Assembly (NCBI GenBank): GCA_046964515.1
Contig: JBKUYM010000001.1
Coordinates: forward strand, 202,124-266,123
DNA length: 64,000 bases
Direction of reading: 5' to 3'
Source of the DNA: Clostridia bacterium
Lineage (GTDB): Bacteria > Bacillota > Clostridia > TANB77 > CAG-508
A program made the position numbers and the translations under genes. The notes beneath the pieces are model-generated. The model was not told the DNA's origin, made no database searches, and was given only the letters and a program-made list of their open reading frames with translations. The stretch's first letter is position 1. The number at the start of each line of letters is the position of its first letter. Of this stretch, positions 44,887 through 54,572 are shown piece by piece.

Positions 44887-45783
44887 ATGAAGAAAATTAG
44901 TATTATTATACCAGCTTATAACTCTGGAAAATTTATTGAACATTGTTTAGAAAGTATTGCTAAGCAAGATTATGATAACTACGAAATTATAGTCATCAAT
45001 GATGCATCTACTGATATTACAGGCTATAAGATATGTGATTTTCAGAAGAAACATCCTAACATAACCATGCAAGTTATTTATAATGAACAAAATAAAGGGG
45101 TAGCCGCTTCAAGAAATATAGGATTAAAAAAAGCAACCGGAGAATATTTACTATTTGTAGATTCTGATGATTATTTATATTGTAACGATGCTCTAAGTTC
45201 CATATCAGAAGAGGTAACAAATAACGACGTTGATGTTCTTATTTTTGGTGCAATTATAAATTATACAAATTGTAATGGAACTTCTATTAAAAAGTTTCCC
45301 ATTATACCCAAGAAGAAAGATGCGAGTAAAAAATATCAGGTATCTAAGAAAATCCTTAGATACCTATGGCCACTATGTATAAAAAAAGACTTAATAGAAA
45401 GAAATGGCATAAAATTTCAAGAAGATTTAGATTTATATGAAGATACGATTTTTACCACTCAAGCATTTTCTCATGCTAGAAAAATAAAAGGTTATAAGAA
45501 AATATGCTATAATTATAATAGGAGATTACATAGGCAAAGTCTATCTTCTAATAATGAGGAACCTTATCTTAATAAACTAAATAAATTAGTAAAAGCTACA
45601 AGAAAGACAGATGCGTTAGTTAATACTGGACAAATACCTATAGAACAAATCAAAGATTTTAAGAAAATGAAAAGGCTATTTTTTCCTGGTATAGTGGTAC
45701 TTTCTGCAAATCATTTGCTAAGTAAAGTAGCAGGGAAGTTTGTAGTAAAAGAAGAAGAAAATGATTTTGATAGAGAATTGTAA
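44887..45783 (+). CDS. Family 2 glycosyltransferase
   Basis: ISIIIPAYNSGKFIEHCLESIAKQDYDNYEIIVINDASTD and a DxD (VDSDD) motif. Confidence 0.8.
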   Translation: MKKISIIIPAYNSGKFIEHCLESIAKQDYDNYEIIVINDASTDITGYKICDFQKKHPNITMQVIYNEQNKGVAASRNIGLKKATGEYLLFVDSDDYLYCNDALSSISEEVTNNDVDVLIFGAIINYTNCNGTSIKKFPIIPKKKDASKKYQVSKKILRYLWPLCIKKDLIERNGIKFQEDLDLYEDTIFTTQAFSHARKIKGYKKICYNYNRRLHRQSLSSNNEEPYLNKLNKLVKATRKTDALVNTGQIPIEQIKDFKKMKRLFFPGIVVLSANHLLSKVAGKFVVKEEENDFDREL

Positions 45784-47298: not shown

Positions 47299-47589
47299 TT
47301 TATCATCCTTTCTTTGCCCTTTTAGGCTCTTTTGTTTTACTTATTATATCATGTAAATTTTTAGAAGTAAAGAAATTACTTTTTACTATTCTATACAATT
47401 TTTTCGATATTATTAGTTGATTTTTCTTTCTTAAAACCGTATTAAAAATAAGCAATCATATCTTGTAAAATATTTTCATATAAATGTAAAAATATTCTTT
47501 ACAAATATGCTACTTTATTGTTTAATATAATAGAGAATATTGTATTTTTTTGTAGAAAAAATACAATAAAATAAATTTTGGAGATTGTT

Positions 47590-49515
47590 ATGAGCAAGAA
47601 TAAAAAAAATAAAAAACAAAATATGGCAATAAATAGCCAAGCAATGGAAAAGTCAATAGAAGAAAAAAATACTACTTCTGCTATTTTAGCTAAACCTCCT
47701 GTCGATTTGGAAATCAAAATACCTGAAGAGGAGTCTAAAGAAGAAGAAAGTGTAACTACCATTGTTTCCAAAGATATGAATGATATTACAGATGCTACTT
47801 CTGAGGCAATGGATGAAGTAAATAGTGTTATTTATACTCAAAATCCTCCTCCAACTTCTGAAGTTAAAACTATACGTCATTTAGATCTTCCCCCAGAATC
47901 TGTTAAAAATACTGCTACTGATACGCCTTCTATAGAAACAGAATCTAATGCTTATACAATGGTAAAAGAAACAAAATCACATAGAAAGGCTCTTGTTATC
48001 CTGCTAGTTTGTATATTTTTAGTATTATTACTTCTTTTATTTTCGACTATTTTTGCCCTTTGTCATATACAAAATAATACTTTGATTTCTGGAATTTCTA
48101 TTAATGGCGTAGATGTTTCAAAATTGAGTAAAGAAGATGCTATCCAAAAGGTTTCTTCTGCTATTTACGAAAAATTAGGAAAACCTATTACTCTAAAACA
48201 TGGCGATTTTGAAACGACTGTTTTTGCAGAACAATTTGATGTAACCTTTGATGCTGCTAAAGCGGTAGATTTGGCATATAAAATTGGTAGAGATGGTAAT
48301 ATTTTTCAAAATAATTTTACTATTTTAGCTGCTTTATTTACTAAAACAGATATTGGTCCTAATTTTTCCTATAGTGACGAGACTTTAGATTCTCTTATTA
48401 AAGAAATCGAAACCAATTTACCAGATCGTATGGTTGAACCTAGTTATTATATAGATGGTAACCACTTAATTATCACCCGTGGAATAAATGGTGTTGCAAT
48501 TGATAATGCACAATTAAAAGCGCAAATTATCTATTGCTTAAATAATTTGGATTGTACCGATTTTATTGAAATTCCTGTTGTCTCTAAAACAGCACAGTCT
48601 ATTGATATAAATACCATTCATTCTGAGATTTACAAAGCTGCTCAAGATGCTTATTATACAACAAATCCTTATGTAGTACATCCTCATGTTAATGGCATTG
48701 ATTTTGCCATTACTATAGAAGAAGCAGTTGCTATGTTAGCTGAAGAGAAAGATTCTTATACAATTCCATTAAAAGTGTTATCTCCTAAGGTAACCACTAA
48801 TCAAATTGGTACAGAGGCTTTTCCTAATTTATTAGGTAGTTATTCTACAACTTACAGTACTAGCAATGCTAATAGAAGTACGAACATTCGACTTGCTGCC
48901 TCTAAAATTAATGGAATTGTTATTATGCCTGGTGAGACTTTTTCATATAACCAAGTAGTTGGAAAAAGAACGGCTGCTGCTGGATTTAAGTCTGCTGCAG
49001 TTTACTCTAACGGAGAAGTTACTACTGGTATTGGTGGTGGTATTTGTCAAGTTTCTTCTACACTTTATAATGCTGTACTATATGCTAATTTAGAAATTGT
49101 AGAAAGAACAAATCATGGTTTTAATCCTGGATATGTAAGTGCTGGAAGAGATGCCACGGTTTCTTGGGGTGGCCCAGATTTTAAATTTAAAAATAATCGA
49201 AATTATGCCATTAAAATTGTATGTTCTGGTTCTGGTGGTAAAATTTATTTTCAAATCTTCGGATTAAAAACAGATGATGACTATGAAGTAGAAATTCAAT
49301 CCTCTGTTGTCCAAAGTATTGCCTATAAGACAGTTTACCAAAATGATAGTAGTCTAGCAAAAGGAAAAACAAAAGTTATTCAAAGTGGTTCTAATGGTTG
49401 TAAGTCTGAAGCTTACAAAATATTAAAGAAAAATGGTAAAGTAATTTCCAAAACTTTATTATCTAGAGATACTTATAATCCTCATAATAAAATTGTAGCT
49501 GTAGGAACAAAATAA
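47590..49515 (+). CDS. VanW family protein with N-terminal TM and C-terminal G5 domain
   Basis: VanW core (GETFSYNQVVGKRTAAAGFK...GGGICQVSSTLYNA); C-terminal G5-like KTVYQNDSSLAKGKTKVIQSGSNG. The ORF track starts at a TTG 12 nt upstream. Confidence 0.8.
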   Translation: MSKNKKNKKQNMAINSQAMEKSIEEKNTTSAILAKPPVDLEIKIPEEESKEEESVTTIVSKDMNDITDATSEAMDEVNSVIYTQNPPPTSEVKTIRHLDLPPESVKNTATDTPSIETESNAYTMVKETKSHRKALVILLVCIFLVLLLLLFSTIFALCHIQNNTLISGISINGVDVSKLSKEDAIQKVSSAIYEKLGKPITLKHGDFETTVFAEQFDVTFDAAKAVDLAYKIGRDGNIFQNNFTILAALFTKTDIGPNFSYSDETLDSLIKEIETNLPDRMVEPSYYIDGNHLIITRGINGVAIDNAQLKAQIIYCLNNLDCTDFIEIPVVSKTAQSIDINTIHSEIYKAAQDAYYTTNPYVVHPHVNGIDFAITIEEAVAMLAEEKDSYTIPLKVLSPKVTTNQIGTEAFPNLLGSYSTTYSTSNANRSTNIRLAASKINGIVIMPGETFSYNQVVGKRTAAAGFKSAAVYSNGEVTTGIGGGICQVSSTLYNAVLYANLEIVERTNHGFNPGYVSAGRDATVSWGGPDFKFKNNRNYAIKIVCSGSGGKIYFQIFGLKTDDDYEVEIQSSVVQSIAYKTVYQNDSSLAKGKTKVIQSGSNGCKSEAYKILKKNGKVISKTLLSRDTYNPHNKIVAVGTK

Positions 49516-49532: not shown

Positions 49533-49566
49533 AATTTCTCTACTTAAAATAGAGAAATTTTTTTAT
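49533..49566 (+). terminator. Rho-independent terminator after vanW
   Basis: AATTTCTCTA-CTTAAAA-TAGAGAAATT followed by TTTTTT. Confidence 0.55.
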
Positions 49567-49647
49567 ATTATTTTTTATTTACATAACATTTACTATGTCG
49601 TTTTTTTATGTTATAATGTTACTAATTAATTATAGGAGGTAAAATAA

Positions 49648-51687
49648 ATGTTAACGAAAACAAATGCAATTGACAGGTTATTACGAGAACGGCCACAATT
49701 AGGCAAAAGGCGGTTTGGTTTACCAGACATAGGTACACGACATGATGGTGAGGGTTTTAATCCCACCGTCCAAACAATTGCTAATGCAATTGACTTTTAT
49801 GGATATTCTGTCCGAGATGAAGCTATTGTAGAAATACCTGATACAGATTTAGGTAGTGGAAATCCTGTACAGTTTAAGCCATTTCCACCTGCAATAGAAG
49901 CTATGAAACATTCCTTAGATAATGATTGGATGTATCGCTACCCTTATACAGAAGGTGATGACAAAATAAGGCAGCAGTTGCTTGATTATGTGGAACGAGA
50001 AGGCTTTGTAAACATTGAACCTTATAACTTTAAGGACATTGATGAAAAAGGTCTTTGTGTTCACAATATCACCTTTTCCACTTCTACATCTGTACTTTTC
50101 AATCAAATCATTAATATTATTTCTAATCCTGGAGATGTTATTTTAGTAACCGCTCCCAACTATGGGCTATTCACGATTAGAGCAGAGCGAGCTGGTGCAG
50201 AAGTAGAAGTACTAAATTTAGAAAAGGAGGATAGTTTCCTAATTAATCCTGAAAAACTTGCAAGGCGAATTGACCAGATTAATGAAAGTTTGCAACAAGT
50301 GTACAATCGTCGGAAAGGTTATGTTCCAAGAGTGGTAGCATTTTTAAATGCTAACCCCAATAACCCGACCGGAAAAGTAATGGGAAAAAAGGAATATACT
50401 CTTTTATATGACATTGCAAAAACTTGCAAAGAACGCGGTGTTTTTGTGATTGACGATTTGGTATATCGCGATATCTCTTATGATGAAGAAGATATTGCAA
50501 TGCCTATTTCCACTATTCCTGGAATGTTCAGAAACACAATTTCTCTTTTTGGACTTTCTAAGAGCTATTCAATGGCTGCGTTAAGAGCTGGATTTGTAGT
50601 TGCTGATGAAATAATCATACGAGAACTTGTCAATAGAATTTTTCAGGAAATGGACTCTTCTCCGGATATTATCGGAAAAGCACTTGCTGGGGCCTTTAAT
50701 GCTACTGACAAAAGATACCAGATTTATAATTCTTACTTTAAAGAGTTAAGAGAACTTTATTTATACAAATTCAATTTACTTAAATCTCTTGTCTCTGGAA
50801 TCGATACTGTTGAATGTAGATTTAAAGATCGCATCGAAAAAGCAGTAACGGATATTTTAGGCTCTTTAAATGCAAAAAAGGCATTATCTGGTATTCCCTT
50901 AATTGATTTTCCCGAAAATTTGGTACCGGAATCAGGCTTCTTTGCTATTTTGGATTTCACTAAAATAAAAGGCATGAAATATAAAAAAAGAGCCATTAGA
51001 ACGGATGAAGATTTGCTTAAGTTTTTTTATGGTACTTCAAGGATAAGGTTTCTAGTCGGTCAGTCTATTTCTTGGCCTTATGAGGATGAACTTGTTGGTA
51101 GAGTTTCTTTTGCCGTTGAAGATGAAAAATTGATAAAATCCATTTTTCAGATGCATAATGTTCTTCTTATGCTTGAGCCTAAAGATGATTATATCATTCG
51201 TAAAAATCTATATCAGGATCAAGAACAGATGGCAAGAATAAAAGTGGATGGCTGGAAAAATGCGTATGATGCGATTATCTCTTCTACCTATCTCAATTCC
51301 TTGAATTACGAAGAACAAACCAAACGTTATCAAGCTAGTTTTGATGAATATAAGGATTTGGTATTTGTTGCCGTAAGAAAAAATGAAGTCCTTGGCTTTG
51401 CTTGTTTTAATACGGTTTGTAATGCGGATTTATTTGATTCTGAACTAGTTAGTTTGTATATCAAACCAACAGAAATTCGCAAAGGCATCGGCACAAGTTT
51501 ATTTCAGGAAACTTGCAAACAACTAGCTTCTCTGGGTAAGAAAAATATGATTGTCTGGTGTCTTAGTGACAACAAAAAAGCCATCAAATTTTACAAATCT
51601 CTTGGTGGCCAAATTGTGAAGAAAAAAGAAGCTCGTATTGGTGATGCTTGTTATAAAGAATTTTGTTTTTATTTTCATTTGAAGTAA
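49648..51687 (+). CDS. PLP-dependent class I/II aminotransferase fused to a C-terminal GNAT acetyltransferase domain
   Basis: NANPNNPTGKVM and SKSYSMAALRAGF (PLP lysine) motifs in the N-terminal 480 aa; C-terminal GNAT core LVSLYIKPTEIRKGIGTSLF. Strong RBS AGGAGGT. The gene uses CGN Arg codons (3 in-frame CGG), unlike neighbouring genes. Confidence 0.8.
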   Translation: MLTKTNAIDRLLRERPQLGKRRFGLPDIGTRHDGEGFNPTVQTIANAIDFYGYSVRDEAIVEIPDTDLGSGNPVQFKPFPPAIEAMKHSLDNDWMYRYPYTEGDDKIRQQLLDYVEREGFVNIEPYNFKDIDEKGLCVHNITFSTSTSVLFNQIINIISNPGDVILVTAPNYGLFTIRAERAGAEVEVLNLEKEDSFLINPEKLARRIDQINESLQQVYNRRKGYVPRVVAFLNANPNNPTGKVMGKKEYTLLYDIAKTCKERGVFVIDDLVYRDISYDEEDIAMPISTIPGMFRNTISLFGLSKSYSMAALRAGFVVADEIIIRELVNRIFQEMDSSPDIIGKALAGAFNATDKRYQIYNSYFKELRELYLYKFNLLKSLVSGIDTVECRFKDRIEKAVTDILGSLNAKKALSGIPLIDFPENLVPESGFFAILDFTKIKGMKYKKRAIRTDEDLLKFFYGTSRIRFLVGQSISWPYEDELVGRVSFAVEDEKLIKSIFQMHNVLLMLEPKDDYIIRKNLYQDQEQMARIKVDGWKNAYDAIISSTYLNSLNYEEQTKRYQASFDEYKDLVFVAVRKNEVLGFACFNTVCNADLFDSELVSLYIKPTEIRKGIGTSLFQETCKQLASLGKKNMIVWCLSDNKKAIKFYKSLGGQIVKKKEARIGDACYKEFCFYFHLK

Positions 51688-51715: not shown

Positions 51716-51760
51716 AAAGGAACAGTCGTAATTTGACTGTTCCTTAATGTTAATTTTTTA
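51716..51760 (+). terminator. Rho-independent terminator
   Basis: AAGGAACAGTC-GTAATTT-GACTGTTCCTT hairpin with an A/T-rich tail. Confidence 0.5.
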
Positions 51761-51822: not shown

Positions 51823-52653
51823 TCAATATTTTTCTTTGTATTTAAATAATACAGAAGGTCTATGCCCTTTACCTGTTAACATTTTATCAGTTTTCTCAAC
51901 TTTATTTGCAATAATTCTTCTAAAAGCAGGTGCTAATAATTTTTCTCCTAAAATTACTTCATAAACATCTTGAAGTTCACTTAAAGTAAAATATTTAGGC
52001 ATCATATTGAATACAATATCCGTATAATTCATCTTATTACGTATTCGTTCAATTCCAGTTAAAATAATCTTTGGATGGTCAAAGGCAATACTTTTGTTTT
52101 CTAAAATTAAAAGAGCATATTGGTTAGTCGTTTTTTGTATTATATTTTTTTTAACAGAAAATTTGATTGTTTCATTACTATTATTCAAAGTAATATTTAC
52201 CATATTGCCTATTTCTTTAAATTCAATAATATCAAACCAAGAGGCATTTTTTTTCAGTTTATGGGTTAATCTATTTTTATCAACCAATGCAACATATGCA
52301 GTCGAAACAACACGAGTTCTGGGATCTCTTTTTATATCATCAAAGGTGTATAATTGTTCTAGATAAATATCCGATAAATTAGTTTCTTTTTTTAAAACTC
52401 TTTTTGCACATTCATCTAGAGTTTCATTTTTAGGACTTAAAAATCCTCCAGGCAAACACCATTTATCTTTAAATGGAAAGTCATTTCTCTTAACAAGTAA
52501 AATACTTATCATCTTTTTACTTGTCTTTCTATAATTTATTGACTCTTTATTTGATACACTAACTAATAGTATATCAGATGTCATACTCAATCTATCAAAT
52601 TCTGTCACATCATAATTTTCTAAAAATTCTTTTTCATTATTATACTTTTCCAT
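51823..52653 (-). CDS. NrtR-like regulator (Nudix domain plus C-terminal winged helix)
   Basis: Nudix box LPGGFLSPKNETLDECAKRVLKKETNL. C-terminus FDHPKIILTGIERIRNKMNYTDIVFNMMPKYFTLSELQDVYEVILGEKLLAPAFRRII...GKGHRPSVLFKYK closely follows the NrtR wHTH consensus. Divergent from the rSAM operon. Confidence 0.7.
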   Translation of the reverse strand: MEKYNNEKEFLENYDVTEFDRLSMTSDILLVSVSNKESINYRKTSKKMISILLVKRNDFPFKDKWCLPGGFLSPKNETLDECAKRVLKKETNLSDIYLEQLYTFDDIKRDPRTRVVSTAYVALVDKNRLTHKLKKNASWFDIIEFKEIGNMVNITLNNSNETIKFSVKKNIIQKTTNQYALLILENKSIAFDHPKIILTGIERIRNKMNYTDIVFNMMPKYFTLSELQDVYEVILGEKLLAPAFRRIIANKVEKTDKMLTGKGHRPSVLFKYKEKY

Positions 52654-52751
52654 AACCACTCCTTTTTATCAATTACTTATTAACATTATATTAAAAAGTA
52701 AAAGAATAAGTCAAGTTTAATAAAGTTATTTATTTAATTTTCAAAAAACTC

Positions 52752-52791
52752 TTGACAAATGTATTTGTTTTTAATATATTGTTAATAACAA
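52752..52791 (+). promoter_or_regulatory. Sigma-A type promoter (TTGACA-17-TATATT) with overlapping 13-bp palindrome TTGTTAATAACAA (candidate operator)
   Basis: TTGACA at 52752-52757, 17-nt spacer, TATATT at 52775-52780; palindrome 52779-52791 overlaps the -10/+1; followed by RBS AAGAGGTG and the rSAM start. Confidence 0.45.
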
Positions 52792-52822
52792 AATGTTAAT
52801 ATGTAAAAAAGAGGTGTTGTTT

Positions 52823-53722
52823 ATGAATAGTAAAGAAAAAATAACATTAAAACCATCACAAAATAGTATTTGTGGAAATAGCCATAATTTACTAAATATT
52901 AAATTACTAAATAGCTGTAACGGTAAGTGTGACTTTTGTATTGCAGCTGGAACACCATTTAAGAAATCTGCAAATGCTCAAAAATTTATTGATACTGCTA
53001 TTTCAATGACAAAATTTTCAAAAGTTGACGTTTTAGGTGGAGAACCAACTTTATATCCTAATCTACTACAAGTATTAAAAGGAATTAGACCATACAAAAA
53101 GGATATTGGTATCATAAGCAATGGATCTAATTTAAAAATAATTAAAGAATGTATACCATACTTAGACACTGTAACATTAAGTATTCATTCATTTGATTAT
53201 AATAAAAATTCAACAGGTATATCTATTAATGAAAAAGAACTAAAAGATTTAAACAAAAATAAAGGAAAATCTGAAATTATAGCTGCTGTAGTTGTAACAG
53301 ACAAAACCGTTTCTAATTTAAAGGAAATAGAATCTTATGCTCAAAAAGCTAAAAAGTTAGGTTTTTCAGCAATTAAATTAATGGAATTAGTTACATCAAA
53401 TGAAAATGTAAATTTTATCGATTTACAAGATTTATTAATAAATTTTGGCATTCACCAGAAAAATGCTACATTAAAAGGATGTTTCTTTGAACTACCAGAA
53501 TTATCAAAATATTTAAAAATAAAAACTTATATTAAACTATGTTGTCCATATAATAATGTATTTAAAGCCAAAAATTTTGGAATACCCAATATTGAATATC
53601 AACCCGATTATATGAATGTCATTCAACCTGATTGTTCTGTAACAGATAGTTGGATATATGATTCGTTTGATAATAAAGTTTTGAATGGAGATGATTTAAA
53701 TGTCAATTACCTTAAGAAATAA
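52823..53722 (+). CDS. Radical SAM enzyme, MoaA/viperin-like core without SPASM domain (paralogue 1)
   Basis: CNGKCDFC (CX3CX2C) at residues about 30-37, GGEPTL SAM-binding motif, ISNGS, SxHSFD; four extra C-terminal Cys (GC, CC, DC). About 300 aa. The ORF track starts 30 nt upstream. Confidence 0.8.
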   Translation: MNSKEKITLKPSQNSICGNSHNLLNIKLLNSCNGKCDFCIAAGTPFKKSANAQKFIDTAISMTKFSKVDVLGGEPTLYPNLLQVLKGIRPYKKDIGIISNGSNLKIIKECIPYLDTVTLSIHSFDYNKNSTGISINEKELKDLNKNKGKSEIIAAVVVTDKTVSNLKEIESYAQKAKKLGFSAIKLMELVTSNENVNFIDLQDLLINFGIHQKNATLKGCFFELPELSKYLKIKTYIKLCCPYNNVFKAKNFGIPNIEYQPDYMNVIQPDCSVTDSWIYDSFDNKVLNGDDLNVNYLKK

Positions 53723-54572
53723 AGAAAATTATTGTATGGGAAGAATGGGACCAAGATTATGTATTCAAACGACTACTGCTTGCAATGGTAAATGTTATTT
53801 TTGTGTTGGAAGATTTAATAAGCCTTCTAAAACAAATGTAGATAAAATTATTAAAAATGCTATTGCATTAGATAAATATCCAGATGTTCTCCTATTAGGT
53901 GGAGAATCCACCTTATTTCCAAATGATTTAATTAAAATTATTAATGCTATTGCACCATATAAAAGAAAAATTACTATTAATACGAATGGCTATAATTTAG
54001 AGTGTTTATTACCAGTTATAACAAAACTAGATAAAATAATTGTTTCTGTTATGGGTAATGAAAAAATAAATAGTGATATTGTTGGCGTTACTCCTGAACT
54101 AGATAAAATAAAAGAATTTCATAAGTTAAATCCAAAACTTAAGTTAAGAGTCAATTGTGTTGTTAATAAGAGAGGAATTGATTCTTTTGATAAAATGGAA
54201 GAATTTGCTTTAGGAATGAAAAAATTAGGTTTTACTTCCATAAAGTTTTCAGAAATGTCAACTGATGACCCTAACGATCTAAATTTTATCGATTTGCAAA
54301 AATTGCTAAAACCTTATTGTAACGATGTTCACCAAAAGGATACTTTACAATGTGGATGCTATTTAGAACCAAAATCTCTTGAAAAAAGATTTGGAATAAA
54401 AACTATTTTAAATTTAACATGCCATTTAAAAACTCCAATTAAGCAATCACATTTTCAATCACTAAATTATGAGCCAATGTGTTTTGATAGCATATATATT
54501 TCCCCTGATGGAAGTATTCATAAAAGAATAGTTGCATCGCAAGATATAGCAAATGATCGTGGAGCGTGTTAA
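53700..54572 (+). CDS. Radical SAM enzyme, paralogue 2 of the upstream gene
   Basis: CNGKCYFC, GGESTL, NTNG; shares KKLGF(S/T)xIK...NFIDLQ(D/K)LL block with paralogue 1; four C-terminal Cys (CGC, C, C). 23-nt overlap with the upstream gene; RBS GGAGATGA. Confidence 0.8.
   Translation: MSITLRNKENYCMGRMGPRLCIQTTTACNGKCYFCVGRFNKPSKTNVDKIIKNAIALDKYPDVLLLGGESTLFPNDLIKIINAIAPYKRKITINTNGYNLECLLPVITKLDKIIVSVMGNEKINSDIVGVTPELDKIKEFHKLNPKLKLRVNCVVNKRGIDSFDKMEEFALGMKKLGFTSIKFSEMSTDDPNDLNFIDLQKLLKPYCNDVHQKDTLQCGCYLEPKSLEKRFGIKTILNLTCHLKTPIKQSHFQSLNYEPMCFDSIYISPDGSIHKRIVASQDIANDRGAC

Follow-up and report, generated by a model that had tools for sequence, protein, structure and literature searches.

An aminotransferase–GNAT fusion protein from uncultured gut Clostridia and its relation to a long aminotransferase family with members in NAD salvage operons

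The fusion gene and its flanking signals

The window considered here, a stretch of 64,000 nucleotides from the genome of a Clostridia bacterium, carries on its forward strand a complete open reading frame with an ATG start (49648..51687), encoding a 679-aa protein in which a PLP-dependent aminotransferase domain is followed by a GNAT acetyltransferase domain; an identical protein is present on 17 public contigs. Upstream lie a GT2 glycosyltransferase gene (44887-45783) and a VanW/G5 gene (47578-49515), and downstream lie a convergent gene for an NrtR-like regulator (51823..52659, reverse strand), assigned by Pfam as Nudix plus winged helix, and two radical SAM genes (52793-54572). Apart from the regulator gene, these are the neighbours that a preliminary description of this DNA had named.

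The fusion gene is preceded by a promoter-like site, TTTACT-17-TATAAT, whose -10 element is extended by a TG (49589..49617, forward strand; 10/12 matches), and by a ribosome-binding site, AGGAGG (49634..49639, forward strand), with the ATG 8 nt further on. The ribosome-binding site is kept in orthologues, and the arrangement TTTAC(T/A)-N17-TATGnTATAAT, together with the ensuing leader, is kept 5' of the orthologues from Clostridia-type genomes despite differing upstream genes. In an Rfam search the leader matched no riboswitch or known RNA. Directly 3' of the VanW-like gene, an AT-rich hairpin, TTTCTCTACTTAAAATAGAGAAA, is followed by a T run (49535..49557, forward strand; 10/11 palindrome); it was overlooked by a terminator scan demanding G+C, and is likely to act as the terminator that parts the VanW-like gene from the fusion gene. 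A second terminator-like hairpin, of 12 pairs, was found by the hairpin scan between the convergent fusion and NrtR-like genes (51717..51745, forward strand). A monocistronic unit appears to be the best explanation of this organization: the fusion gene has a promoter and a ribosome-binding site to itself, is bounded by a hairpin at either end, faces a convergent gene downstream and sits among variable neighbours. The gene was not matched in a PADLOC search for anti-phage defence systems.

When considered from a compositional point of view, the fusion gene is indeed GC-richer than its surroundings, as had been claimed (0.350 versus a mean of 0.297 for the open reading frames of the window), and its GC3 of 0.262, compared with 0.185 for the window, is the highest among reading frames longer than 105 aa. 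The three in-frame CGG codons that had been pointed out (codons 15, 22 and 222) make up 3 of the 6 in the entire window, and AGA accounts for 13 of its 38 arginine codons against 66% window-wide. The bias described as “foreign” is therefore real, but the word is only partly right: the gene is not a recent import into this genome, since the GC3 excess is common to the entire Clostridia-type branch of orthologues, in many differing contexts, and is missing from the Bacilli-type branch.

Structure of the two domains

The aminotransferase domain comprises residues 1-510 (49648..51177, forward strand), of which residues 66-371 match the Pfam family PF00155 (Aminotran_1_2; E 3.7e-28, 99.2 bits against a cut-off of 19.7). 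Both hallmarks reported earlier are present and conserved: the NPNNPTG motif (N236-G242; 50353..50373, forward strand), whose N236, P237 and N239 are invariant across a 37-member alignment, N239 being the counterpart of AspAT Asn194, and the Schiff-base lysine K305 in SKSYSMAALRAGF (codon at 50560..50562, forward strand), which is invariant family-wide along with S304 and R313. Among the 37 family members, which share 30-48% identity, the invariant positions are Y98, N239, D270, Y273, S304, K305, R313 and R485, and the fusion possesses the full set of Schiff-base lysine, PLP-N1 aspartate, O3' tyrosine, asparagine, phosphate arginine and alpha-carboxylate arginine. Judged by these residues, the domain is catalytically intact. 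It is of the AspAT type, not the DegT type: in a Pfam scan at E <= 0.01, only PF00155 and GNAT families were recovered and the DegT/DnrJ/EryC1/ArnB profile was unmatched, while the structural neighbours are all AspAT-type. None of the named NCBIfam aminotransferase equivalogs (LL-DAP aminotransferase, AspAT, HisC, GntC, PatB etc.) was reached at its cut-off; the 25 matches listed all fall well under their own cut-offs, the best being GntC (99 bits versus 415) and LL-DAP aminotransferase (94 versus 507).

A first full-length structure model was weak over the aminotransferase part (pLDDT 72.8) and gave way to a model of the domain computed from a more diverse alignment. By this predicted model, the domain adopts the subgroup I transaminase fold, and the solved structures nearest to it are those of AlaA, BacF and the aspartate/prephenate aminotransferases. 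Sequence identity is 17-20% to AlaA from Escherichia coli (4cvq) and BacF from Bacillus subtilis (6l1l), as well as to the Pyrococcus alanine/aromatic aminotransferases (1xi9, 1dju), the Thermus AspAT (1bjw) and prephenate aminotransferases (6f77, 5wmh). In comparison with these subgroup I enzymes, the fusion's domain is ~120 residues longer, has extra helices at residues 354-412 and is followed by the GNAT domain. It also carries a conserved N-terminal extension (residues 1-65; 49648..49842, forward strand) with the motif R-x-(F/H)-G-L-P-x-x-G-x-R-x-D-G, defined from family alignments, in which G24, P26 and G29 are invariant. This extension is family-specific and absent from ordinary class I aminotransferases, and its profile gave zero matches against solved structures.

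The GNAT domain (residues ~517-679; 51196..51684, forward strand) is recognized by PF00583, PF13508 and PF08445, the PF00583 match spanning residues 554-653 (E 7.8e-14, 52.4 bits against a cut-off of 20.7). The acetyl-CoA pyrophosphate-binding motif R/Q-x-x-G-x-G/A appears as R611-K-G-I-G615 (51478..51492, forward strand), with G613 and G615, like Y649, invariant in the fused clade. The earlier reading of the protein as a full fold-type I aminotransferase joined to a C-terminal GNAT is thus borne out by its Pfam domains and conserved residues. The best match in the PDB is 1wk4 (E 7.7e-22, 33% identity, TM 0.85 over 169 residues); 1wk4/2cy2 correspond to the Thermus thermophilus GNAT “ttk003001606”, a stand-alone 174-aa protein of unassigned function, and since it has no known substrate, no function can be transferred from it to the fusion. 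The NCBIfam GNAT subfamilies RimI, PaiA/SSAT, ArsN1, MshD and PseH gave only sub-threshold matches, the best being RimI with 39.3 bits versus 86.4.

The fused clade within a long aminotransferase family

The fusion is conserved as a unit: full-length proteins with both domains form more than 120 clusters at >=69% identity, occur in 41 species-level gut MAGs and are monophyletic in 100/100 NJ bootstraps; the names that they bear in source records are all generic. This fused clade is narrow, abundant and uncharacterised, and it is nested in a larger, deep family of “long” aminotransferases of ~500 aa, whose members outside the clade are devoid of a GNAT. Most of the more than 1,400 sequence clusters in this family come from gut Firmicutes that have not been cultured. 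Placing the domain between DegT/ArnB and AspAT families, as the preliminary description had proposed, yields a divided answer: the domain falls on the AspAT-like side and the fusion is widespread within its clade, yet it does not correspond to any known, named bifunctional enzyme, and literature searches for an aminotransferase–GNAT fusion retrieved nothing relevant. A tblastn search of a plasmid collection returned only ordinary aminotransferases, at 20-29% identity.

Several candidates were set aside. P0174, considered as a standalone GNAT, is in fact a fused gene with a frameshift, and its contig has low coverage (~3x by contig name); in P0194 (locus L140) the sole difference is an in-frame TAA in the linker; as this codon may be an error, the case is ambiguous and a clean Rosetta-stone pair is lacking. 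P0162 (822 aa), considered as a PsePQ-like fusion, has a glycosyltransferase-like N-terminal domain that leaves PhyH unmatched, and the long matches P0213-P0264 (620-1180 aa) contain only PF00155 and unknown regions and are uninformative.

Besides its occurrence in NAD operons, the long family is associated with Nudix hydrolases, with phosphatases and kinases, and with radical SAM enzymes. Nudix hydrolases accompany the more distant members, either adjacent or fused, and the Nudix domain of these Nudix-aminotransferase fusions shows no similarity to that of the NrtR-like protein in the window. In a number of loci (L047-L049, L051-L053, L055 and L067-L070), a DcsG_N-type ATP-grasp gene stands directly 3' of the aminotransferase gene, and standalone members are often also followed by a second, LAL-like ATP-grasp. 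A parallel is offered by the bacilysin pathway, which pairs the aminotransferase BacF with the ATP-grasp ligase BacD in the synthesis of a dipeptide antibiotic, BacF being also among the top structural matches of the fusion. The likeness is one of gene order and fold only: in the fusion, amide formation would fall to the GNAT, which stands where the ligase does and relies on acetyl-CoA instead of ATP-grasp chemistry.

Relation to NAD salvage operons and NrtR

The closest standalone relatives of the fusion are long aminotransferases encoded in pncA-pncB-nudix-nadE-nadD-(cinA)-nadK-aminotransferase operons (L045/46, L063, L065 and L066) of Bacilli-type gut MAGs. These proteins, such as P0122 in L045, are 45-48% identical to the fusion over 510 residues, N-terminal extension included, and they group together with the fused clade in 175/200 bootstraps. 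Paired 23-bp boxes, presumably NrtR operators, are located 5' of pncA in these operons. The operon-encoded enzymes have no GNAT, and their gene closes a unit headed by 23-bp boxes; the window gene appears monocistronic, with a promoter to itself and without such a box. Since this closest branch is the last gene of salvage operons under apparent NrtR control, the fused clade most likely descended from a NAD-operon enzyme that acquired an acetyltransferase and then became an independent gene.

A position weight matrix was built from eight palindromic boxes 5' of pncA in relatives, its training sites scoring 27-32 bits. With this matrix, no NrtR box was found upstream of the fusion gene itself, whether in the window or across 45 fused loci (best score 2.9 bits); within 300 nt upstream of position 49648 the best score is -3.2 bits, and the only matches in the window lie at 52676-52803, with boxes at 52676 and 52767. 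Furthermore, nrtR is found near the fusion gene in only ~3 of ~47 independent fused loci. Without a box of its own, and with few loci close to nrtR, the link of the fusion to NAD is thus mainly ancestral. One of the exceptions is L034, where nrtR lies directly upstream on the same strand; the two genes make up a bicistronic operon, again box-bearing (at 7112), in which the fusion gene comes last.

The NrtR-like protein of the window shares 63% identity with the NrtR encoded in the NAD operon of L045; its gene is regarded here as context.

Proposed function and alternative explanations

We favour, with a probability of roughly one half, the view that the protein is a self-contained, monocistronic bifunctional enzyme that transaminates a substrate and then N-acetylates it. 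The aminotransferase domain would most likely aminate a carbonyl substrate at the expense of an amino-acid donor, or work in the opposite direction, and the fused GNAT would cap the resulting amine with acetyl-CoA to give an N-acetylated amino compound; both the order of the reactions and a single substrate common to the two domains are presumed. The substrate is probably an alpha-amino acid or 2-oxo acid, or else a nucleotide-linked carbonyl compound, and not an NDP-sugar. The earlier proposal of consecutive transamination and N-acetylation is thus reasonable, as both intact domains reside in a single polypeptide, but its choice of substrate does not survive: with an AspAT-like domain (PF00155) and DegT/ArnB unmatched, the specific case for a UDP-ketosugar or an aminocyclitol is gone.

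As both halves are textbook folds, the fusion alone is a modest finding, namely an uncharacterised bifunctional enzyme of abundant, uncultured gut bacteria. Its evolutionary context adds more, because it reveals a large unannotated AspAT-like subfamily with a unique N-terminal extension, for whose biochemistry the fusion is a handy single-protein entry. To our knowledge, no aminotransferase has a role in NAD salvage, so that identification of the substrate would either add a NAD-related step in these organisms or uncover a family of small products derived from amino acids.

The class I fold is also shared by C-S lyases, decarboxylases and cyclases, with structural scores nearly equal to those of transaminases, and transamination as such is therefore unproven. 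The PLP domain may instead perform one of these reactions (C-S or beta/gamma-lyase, decarboxylase, cyclase), the GNAT acetylating the resulting amine or the substrate; we consider this possible but unlikely.

A further idea, which we hold tentatively and regard as somewhat less probable still, concerns the long family as a whole. It could take part, so far unrecognised, in NAD or nucleotide metabolism, its substrate being a carbonyl or amino compound that derives from NAD or is linked to a nucleotide, for instance an intermediate derived from ADP-ribose or nicotinamide. The product would then be processed by Nudix hydrolases, by kinases or phosphatases, and by a partner that forms an amide; the window fusion would make the N-acetylated form of that metabolite within one protein. 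If so, together with the adjoining radical SAM pair under apparent NrtR control, it would suggest that gut bacteria with reduced genomes possess a hitherto undescribed branch of NAD salvage, or of the synthesis of NAD-derived metabolites.

Doubtful, and less probable again, is a GNAT that acetylates proteins, at lysines or N-termini, while the aminotransferase-like domain serves as a metabolite sensor or regulatory module, like those of other sensor-GNAT fusions, maybe coupling acetylation to amino-acid or NAD status. The catalytic residues of the aminotransferase are all invariant over a deep family whose members outside the fused clade lack a GNAT, and this fits an enzyme and not a sensor. 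In addition, nrtR is not nearby in most fused loci, and NrtR acetylation in Mycobacterium smegmatis is non-enzymatic, via acetyl phosphate; given that published case, enzymatic acetylation of NrtR by the fusion's GNAT was rejected as a candidate.

A chemistry of the SbzP/PseP kind is very improbable. In the altemicidin pathway, the PLP enzyme SbzP acts on beta-NAD and SAM, and the GNAT SbzI then N-acylates (PMC13518217); by analogy, the PLP domain would join SAM to the nicotinamide ring of beta-NAD and the GNAT would N-acylate the new amino acid. The resemblance lies in a PLP enzyme followed by an amine-acylating GNAT, in the unusual length (the 523 aa of SbzP, itself described as an aminotransferase, are close to those of the long family; PMC13518217) and in the NAD-related contexts and other gene associations of the long family listed above. 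The structural test was nevertheless unsupportive of NAD tailoring, and neither a closer relationship to PseP than to ordinary aminotransferases nor sbz-type accessory genes nearby were found.

Finally, the shared pathway proposed in the preliminary description, in which an amino-sugar or aminocyclitol transaminase/N-acetyltransferase would cooperate with the GT2, VanW and radical SAM proteins in cell-wall or glycan modification, has hardly any likelihood left: these genes are physically close in the window, and a distant relative's cluster (L050/L051) includes an NTP-transferase and a PIG-L deacetylase, but a DegT-type domain is absent, synteny largely refutes the association (of 41 species-level genomes with the fusion, 2 retain the VanW/M18 neighbours, and none retains GT2 or radical SAM), a hairpin and a separate promoter part the VanW gene from the fusion gene, and the two radical SAM genes form part of another transcription unit, under apparent NrtR control.

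Domain architecture, fold and proposed reaction

The open reading frame at 49648-51687 on the forward strand comprises 679 codons, starts with ATG and is preceded by an AGGAGG located 8 nt 5' of the start codon. Pfam places an Aminotran_1_2 domain (PF00155) at residues 66-371 (E 3.7e-28) and a GNAT domain at residues 554-653 (PF00583, PF13508 and PF08445, with E down to 7.8e-14); the motifs quoted in the preliminary description are both found in the protein, and its reading of a single ORF uniting aminotransferase and GNAT is borne out. An alignment of 37 family members (only 30-48% identical) has Y98, N236, P237, N239, D270, Y273, S304, K305, R313 and R485 among its invariant positions. We take the invariant residues to be the phosphate-binding Tyr, the Asn, the PLP-N1 Asp, the O3' Tyr, the Schiff-base Lys, the phosphate Arg and the alpha-carboxylate Arg of AspAT-type enzymes. 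The GNAT motif R611-x-G613-x-G615 and Y649 are likewise invariant across the fused clade and, given the conservation of these catalytic and cofactor-binding residues, both halves look catalytically competent.

The reading that we favour, with a probability of about one half, is a stand-alone bifunctional enzyme in which the PLP domain would carry out an amino-group transfer on a small molecule and the GNAT would next N-acetylate that same molecule, using acetyl-CoA. The family it would descend from is associated with NAD or nucleotide-linked metabolism rather than with sugars or the cell wall. The PLP domain may instead perform a class I-fold chemistry other than transamination, which we consider unlikely though worth bearing in mind. 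Rather less probable still is a protein acetyltransferase in which the aminotransferase half serves as a sensor domain.

The aminotransferase domain was modelled on a more diverse alignment (pLDDT 90.6), and its top Foldseek matches are subgroup Ib aspartate and prephenate aminotransferases (TM 0.80-0.86, 17-19% identity), so the modelled fold is of the AspAT type. No DegT-type profile of Pfam matches the fusion protein. Both results speak against a sugar aminotransferase of the DegT/ArnB-like kind, and an AspAT-type fold leaves no specific reason to propose NDP-ketosugars or aminocyclitols as substrates. In NCBIfam every match listed lies far under its cut-off, the best being GntC (99 vs 415 bits) and LL-DAP aminotransferase (94 vs 507 bits). 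Unlike the subgroup Ib enzymes, the fusion domain is about 120 residues longer, with a conserved N-terminal extension (R-x-F/H-G-L-P-x-x-G-x-R-x-D-G), whose profile found no matching solved structure, and extra helices at residues 354-412.

Distribution of the fusion

All homologues with at least 69% identity are 667-699 aa long and carry both domains, with more than 120 clusters among the matches listed, all under generic names. When 1.84 billion representatives at 50% identity were searched, P0121 (686 aa) was the sole full-length match, and the next matches (36-49% identity) are standalone proteins of 490-540 aa that cover query residues ~5-507 and are devoid of the GNAT. A profile of these standalone proteins retrieved 1,450 clusters at E <= 1e-30, whose names are likewise generic. 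Other fusions occur in the family, namely an active Nudix domain placed N-terminally to the aminotransferase in two homologues (P0138 and P0150); one member further removed is fused to a TPP enzyme. The fused clade is monophyletic in 100/100 NJ bootstraps, and by these comparisons the GNAT fusion is one narrow monophyletic clade inside a large uncharacterised family.

The protein P0174, considered as a standalone GNAT, was rejected, since it comes from a contig of low coverage on which the fused gene is frameshifted; the disrupted fusion locus L137 has a frameshift near residue 460 (860-960 of that locus), on a contig of ~3x by its name. In another disrupted locus, L140, the GNAT (P0194) is called apart from the preceding 502-aa aminotransferase. 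All that divides them is an in-frame TAA in the linker, and 15 bases on a GTG starts a 156-aa GNAT ORF in the same frame (2837-2857); this TAA may mark a genuine split or a mere error. It follows that "standalone GNAT" entries in databases include some that are artefacts or that reflect a recent disruption of the fusion.

Relatives and the link to NAD metabolism

The closest standalone relative, P0122, is 48% identical to the fusion aminotransferase and is encoded at locus L045 in the order pncA, pncB, Nudix, nadE, nadD, radical SAM, aminotransferase, NAD kinase, ADP-ribosylglycohydrolase and cinA, with nrtR further on. The radical SAM gene just before this aminotransferase encodes a 263-aa protein whose first 100-110 residues share ~32% identity with each of the window's two radical SAM proteins. 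Three further contigs from a metagenome scan (45-47% identity) show the order pncA-pncB-nudix-nadE-nadD-cinA-nadK-aminotransferase, and at L045/L046, L063, L065 and L066 a long aminotransferase closes, or nearly closes, a pncA-pncB-nudix-nadE-nadD-(cinA)-nadK operon with paired 23-bp boxes. Of 200 bootstraps, 175 place the fused clade with this NAD-operon branch. Among fused orthologues, that of L034 is the last gene of such an operon, directly after nrtR, and that of L007 has the operon's Nudix homologue next downstream; in the window, the fusion gene adjoins the gene of an NrtR with 63% identity to the L045 protein.

More distant members (31-45% identity) have a DcsG_N-type ATP-grasp gene directly downstream, as a conserved pair (L047-L053, L055 and L067-L070), often together with a second, LAL-like ATP-grasp, a small Nudix just upstream, kinases, HAD or histidine-type phosphatases and an amino-acid ABC transporter; L050/L051 add an NTP-transferase, a PIG-L deacetylase, a second long aminotransferase and B12-radical SAM genes. 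These loci look like biosynthetic clusters. Two associations are recurrent in the family, a Nudix hydrolase and a downstream amide-forming enzyme, and in the fusion it is the GNAT that takes the place of the second. SbzP, a 523-aa PLP "aminotransferase", joins SAM to beta-NAD, and the amine so formed is acylated by a GNAT, SbzI (PMC13518217, PMC9516700). This logic would have suited the fusion's context well; an SbzP-like enzyme is nevertheless very improbable in our estimation.

Transcription unit and neighbouring genes

An AT-rich hairpin with a T run lies directly 3' of the VanW-like gene, a promoter-like TTTACT-17-TG-TATAAT lies 5' of the fusion gene's ribosome-binding site, and a 12-pair hairpin follows its stop codon, beyond which the next gene is convergent; hence the fusion gene looks like a monocistronic unit. 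Comparison of window 49585-49647 with the matching position in L001-L020, L033, L035 and L039-L041 shows nucleotide-level conservation of promoter (TTTACw-N17-TATGnTATAAT) and leader (ATTATGTAGATTAAyAATAGGAGGTAAAATA) in Clostridia-type genomes despite differing upstream genes, and the gene seems to carry its expression signals with it.

Synteny was examined in 41 species-level genomes carrying the fusion, whose hosts comprise uncultured Clostridia/Clostridiaceae, Candidatus Scatovivens, Bacilli, Erysipelotrichales and Acholeplasma sp. CAG:878. Only 2/41 genomes retain the VanW and M18 neighbours, 1/41 the NrtR-like neighbour and 0/41 the GT2 or the two radical SAM neighbours, so the idea of a pathway shared by the fusion, the glycosyltransferase, VanW and the radical SAM cassette is unsupported, and the glycan role built on that adjacency is the least credible of the alternatives. 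The commonest neighbour, a 437-aa gene resembling glucose-6-phosphate isomerase (11 loci), is lineage synteny with a housekeeping gene. A second GNAT of 148 aa (54983-55429, forward strand), lying 410 nt downstream of the radical SAM pair, is 25% identical to the fused GNAT over 56 residues and is not closely related to it.

Predicted NrtR operators

The pncA promoters of L034, L045, L063 and L065 each contain two copies of a 23-bp palindrome, GTTATTAAnA-N3-TnTTAATAAC, and since NrtR sites are described in general as palindromes of roughly 21 bp (PMC2330246), these boxes are read as predicted NrtR operators. A PWM was built from eight of these boxes, with the window left out, and at a threshold of >=12 bits its only matches in the 64 kb are at 52676-52698 (21.7 bits), 52767-52789 (28.5 bits) and 52781-52803 (17.6 bits), against 0.16 matches in shuffled sequence. 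All three fall in the nrtR/radical SAM intergenic region, within a segment (52660-54572) that also takes in the radical SAM pair, and the highest-scoring of them overlaps a -10 region, that of a TTGACA promoter closely resembling the pncA promoters of L034 and L045. The overlapping radical SAM genes (52793-53722 and 53700-54572), whose two uncharacterised products have weak viperin/MoaA-like N-terminal halves, are therefore a candidate NrtR-controlled unit; a literature search found no paper treating both NrtR and radical SAM. Upstream of the fusion gene, in the window and 45 fused loci, no PWM score exceeds 2.9 bits except in L034, where a box lies 5' of an nrtR-fusion bicistron. The window's fusion gene is thus not under such direct control by NrtR, and the fusion's link to NAD is mainly by descent, with occasional adjacency. 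The fusion combines known enzyme kinds; of greater interest are the long aminotransferases, an unannotated family present in NrtR-controlled NAD operons, and the neighbouring radical SAM pair with its NrtR boxes.

Codon usage and minor features

The fusion gene has a GC of 0.350 vs a window ORF mean of 0.297 and a GC3 of 0.262 vs 0.185, the highest among ORFs of more than 105 aa; it holds 3/6 CGG codons of the window (residues 15, 22 and 222), and AGA accounts for 13/38 of its Arg codons vs 66% window-wide. When GC3 was ranked in the 38 orthologous loci with enough flanking ORFs, the fusion gene came first or second in nearly all Clostridia-type genomes (L001-L020, L035 and L039-L041), reaching 0.41 vs flanks of ~0.15, and was unremarkable in Bacilli-type genomes (L021-L038 except L035). 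The bias reported earlier is thus confirmed, and the term "foreign" needs qualifying, for it is a trait of the whole Clostridia-type orthologue branch, which is found in many contexts, and does not stem from recent import here. CGN/CGG arginine codons are kept at conserved positions in Clostridia-type orthologues.

No tRNA-Arg(CCG), the reader of CGG, lies within the 64-kb window. Genes for tRNA-Arg(TCT) (44609-44685, forward), tRNA-Arg(ACG) (55519-55595, reverse) and tRNA-Pro(TGG) (55724-55799, forward) flank the block of GT2, M18 peptidase, VanW, fusion gene, nrtR, radical SAM pair and small GNAT. A 104-codon ORF of very odd composition (61869-62183, reverse; GC1 0.15, GC3 0.44, 13 Arg codons), without an Rfam match in that interval, is probably not a real gene. 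A very large ORF of 1,694 aa occupies 4476-9560 on the reverse strand.
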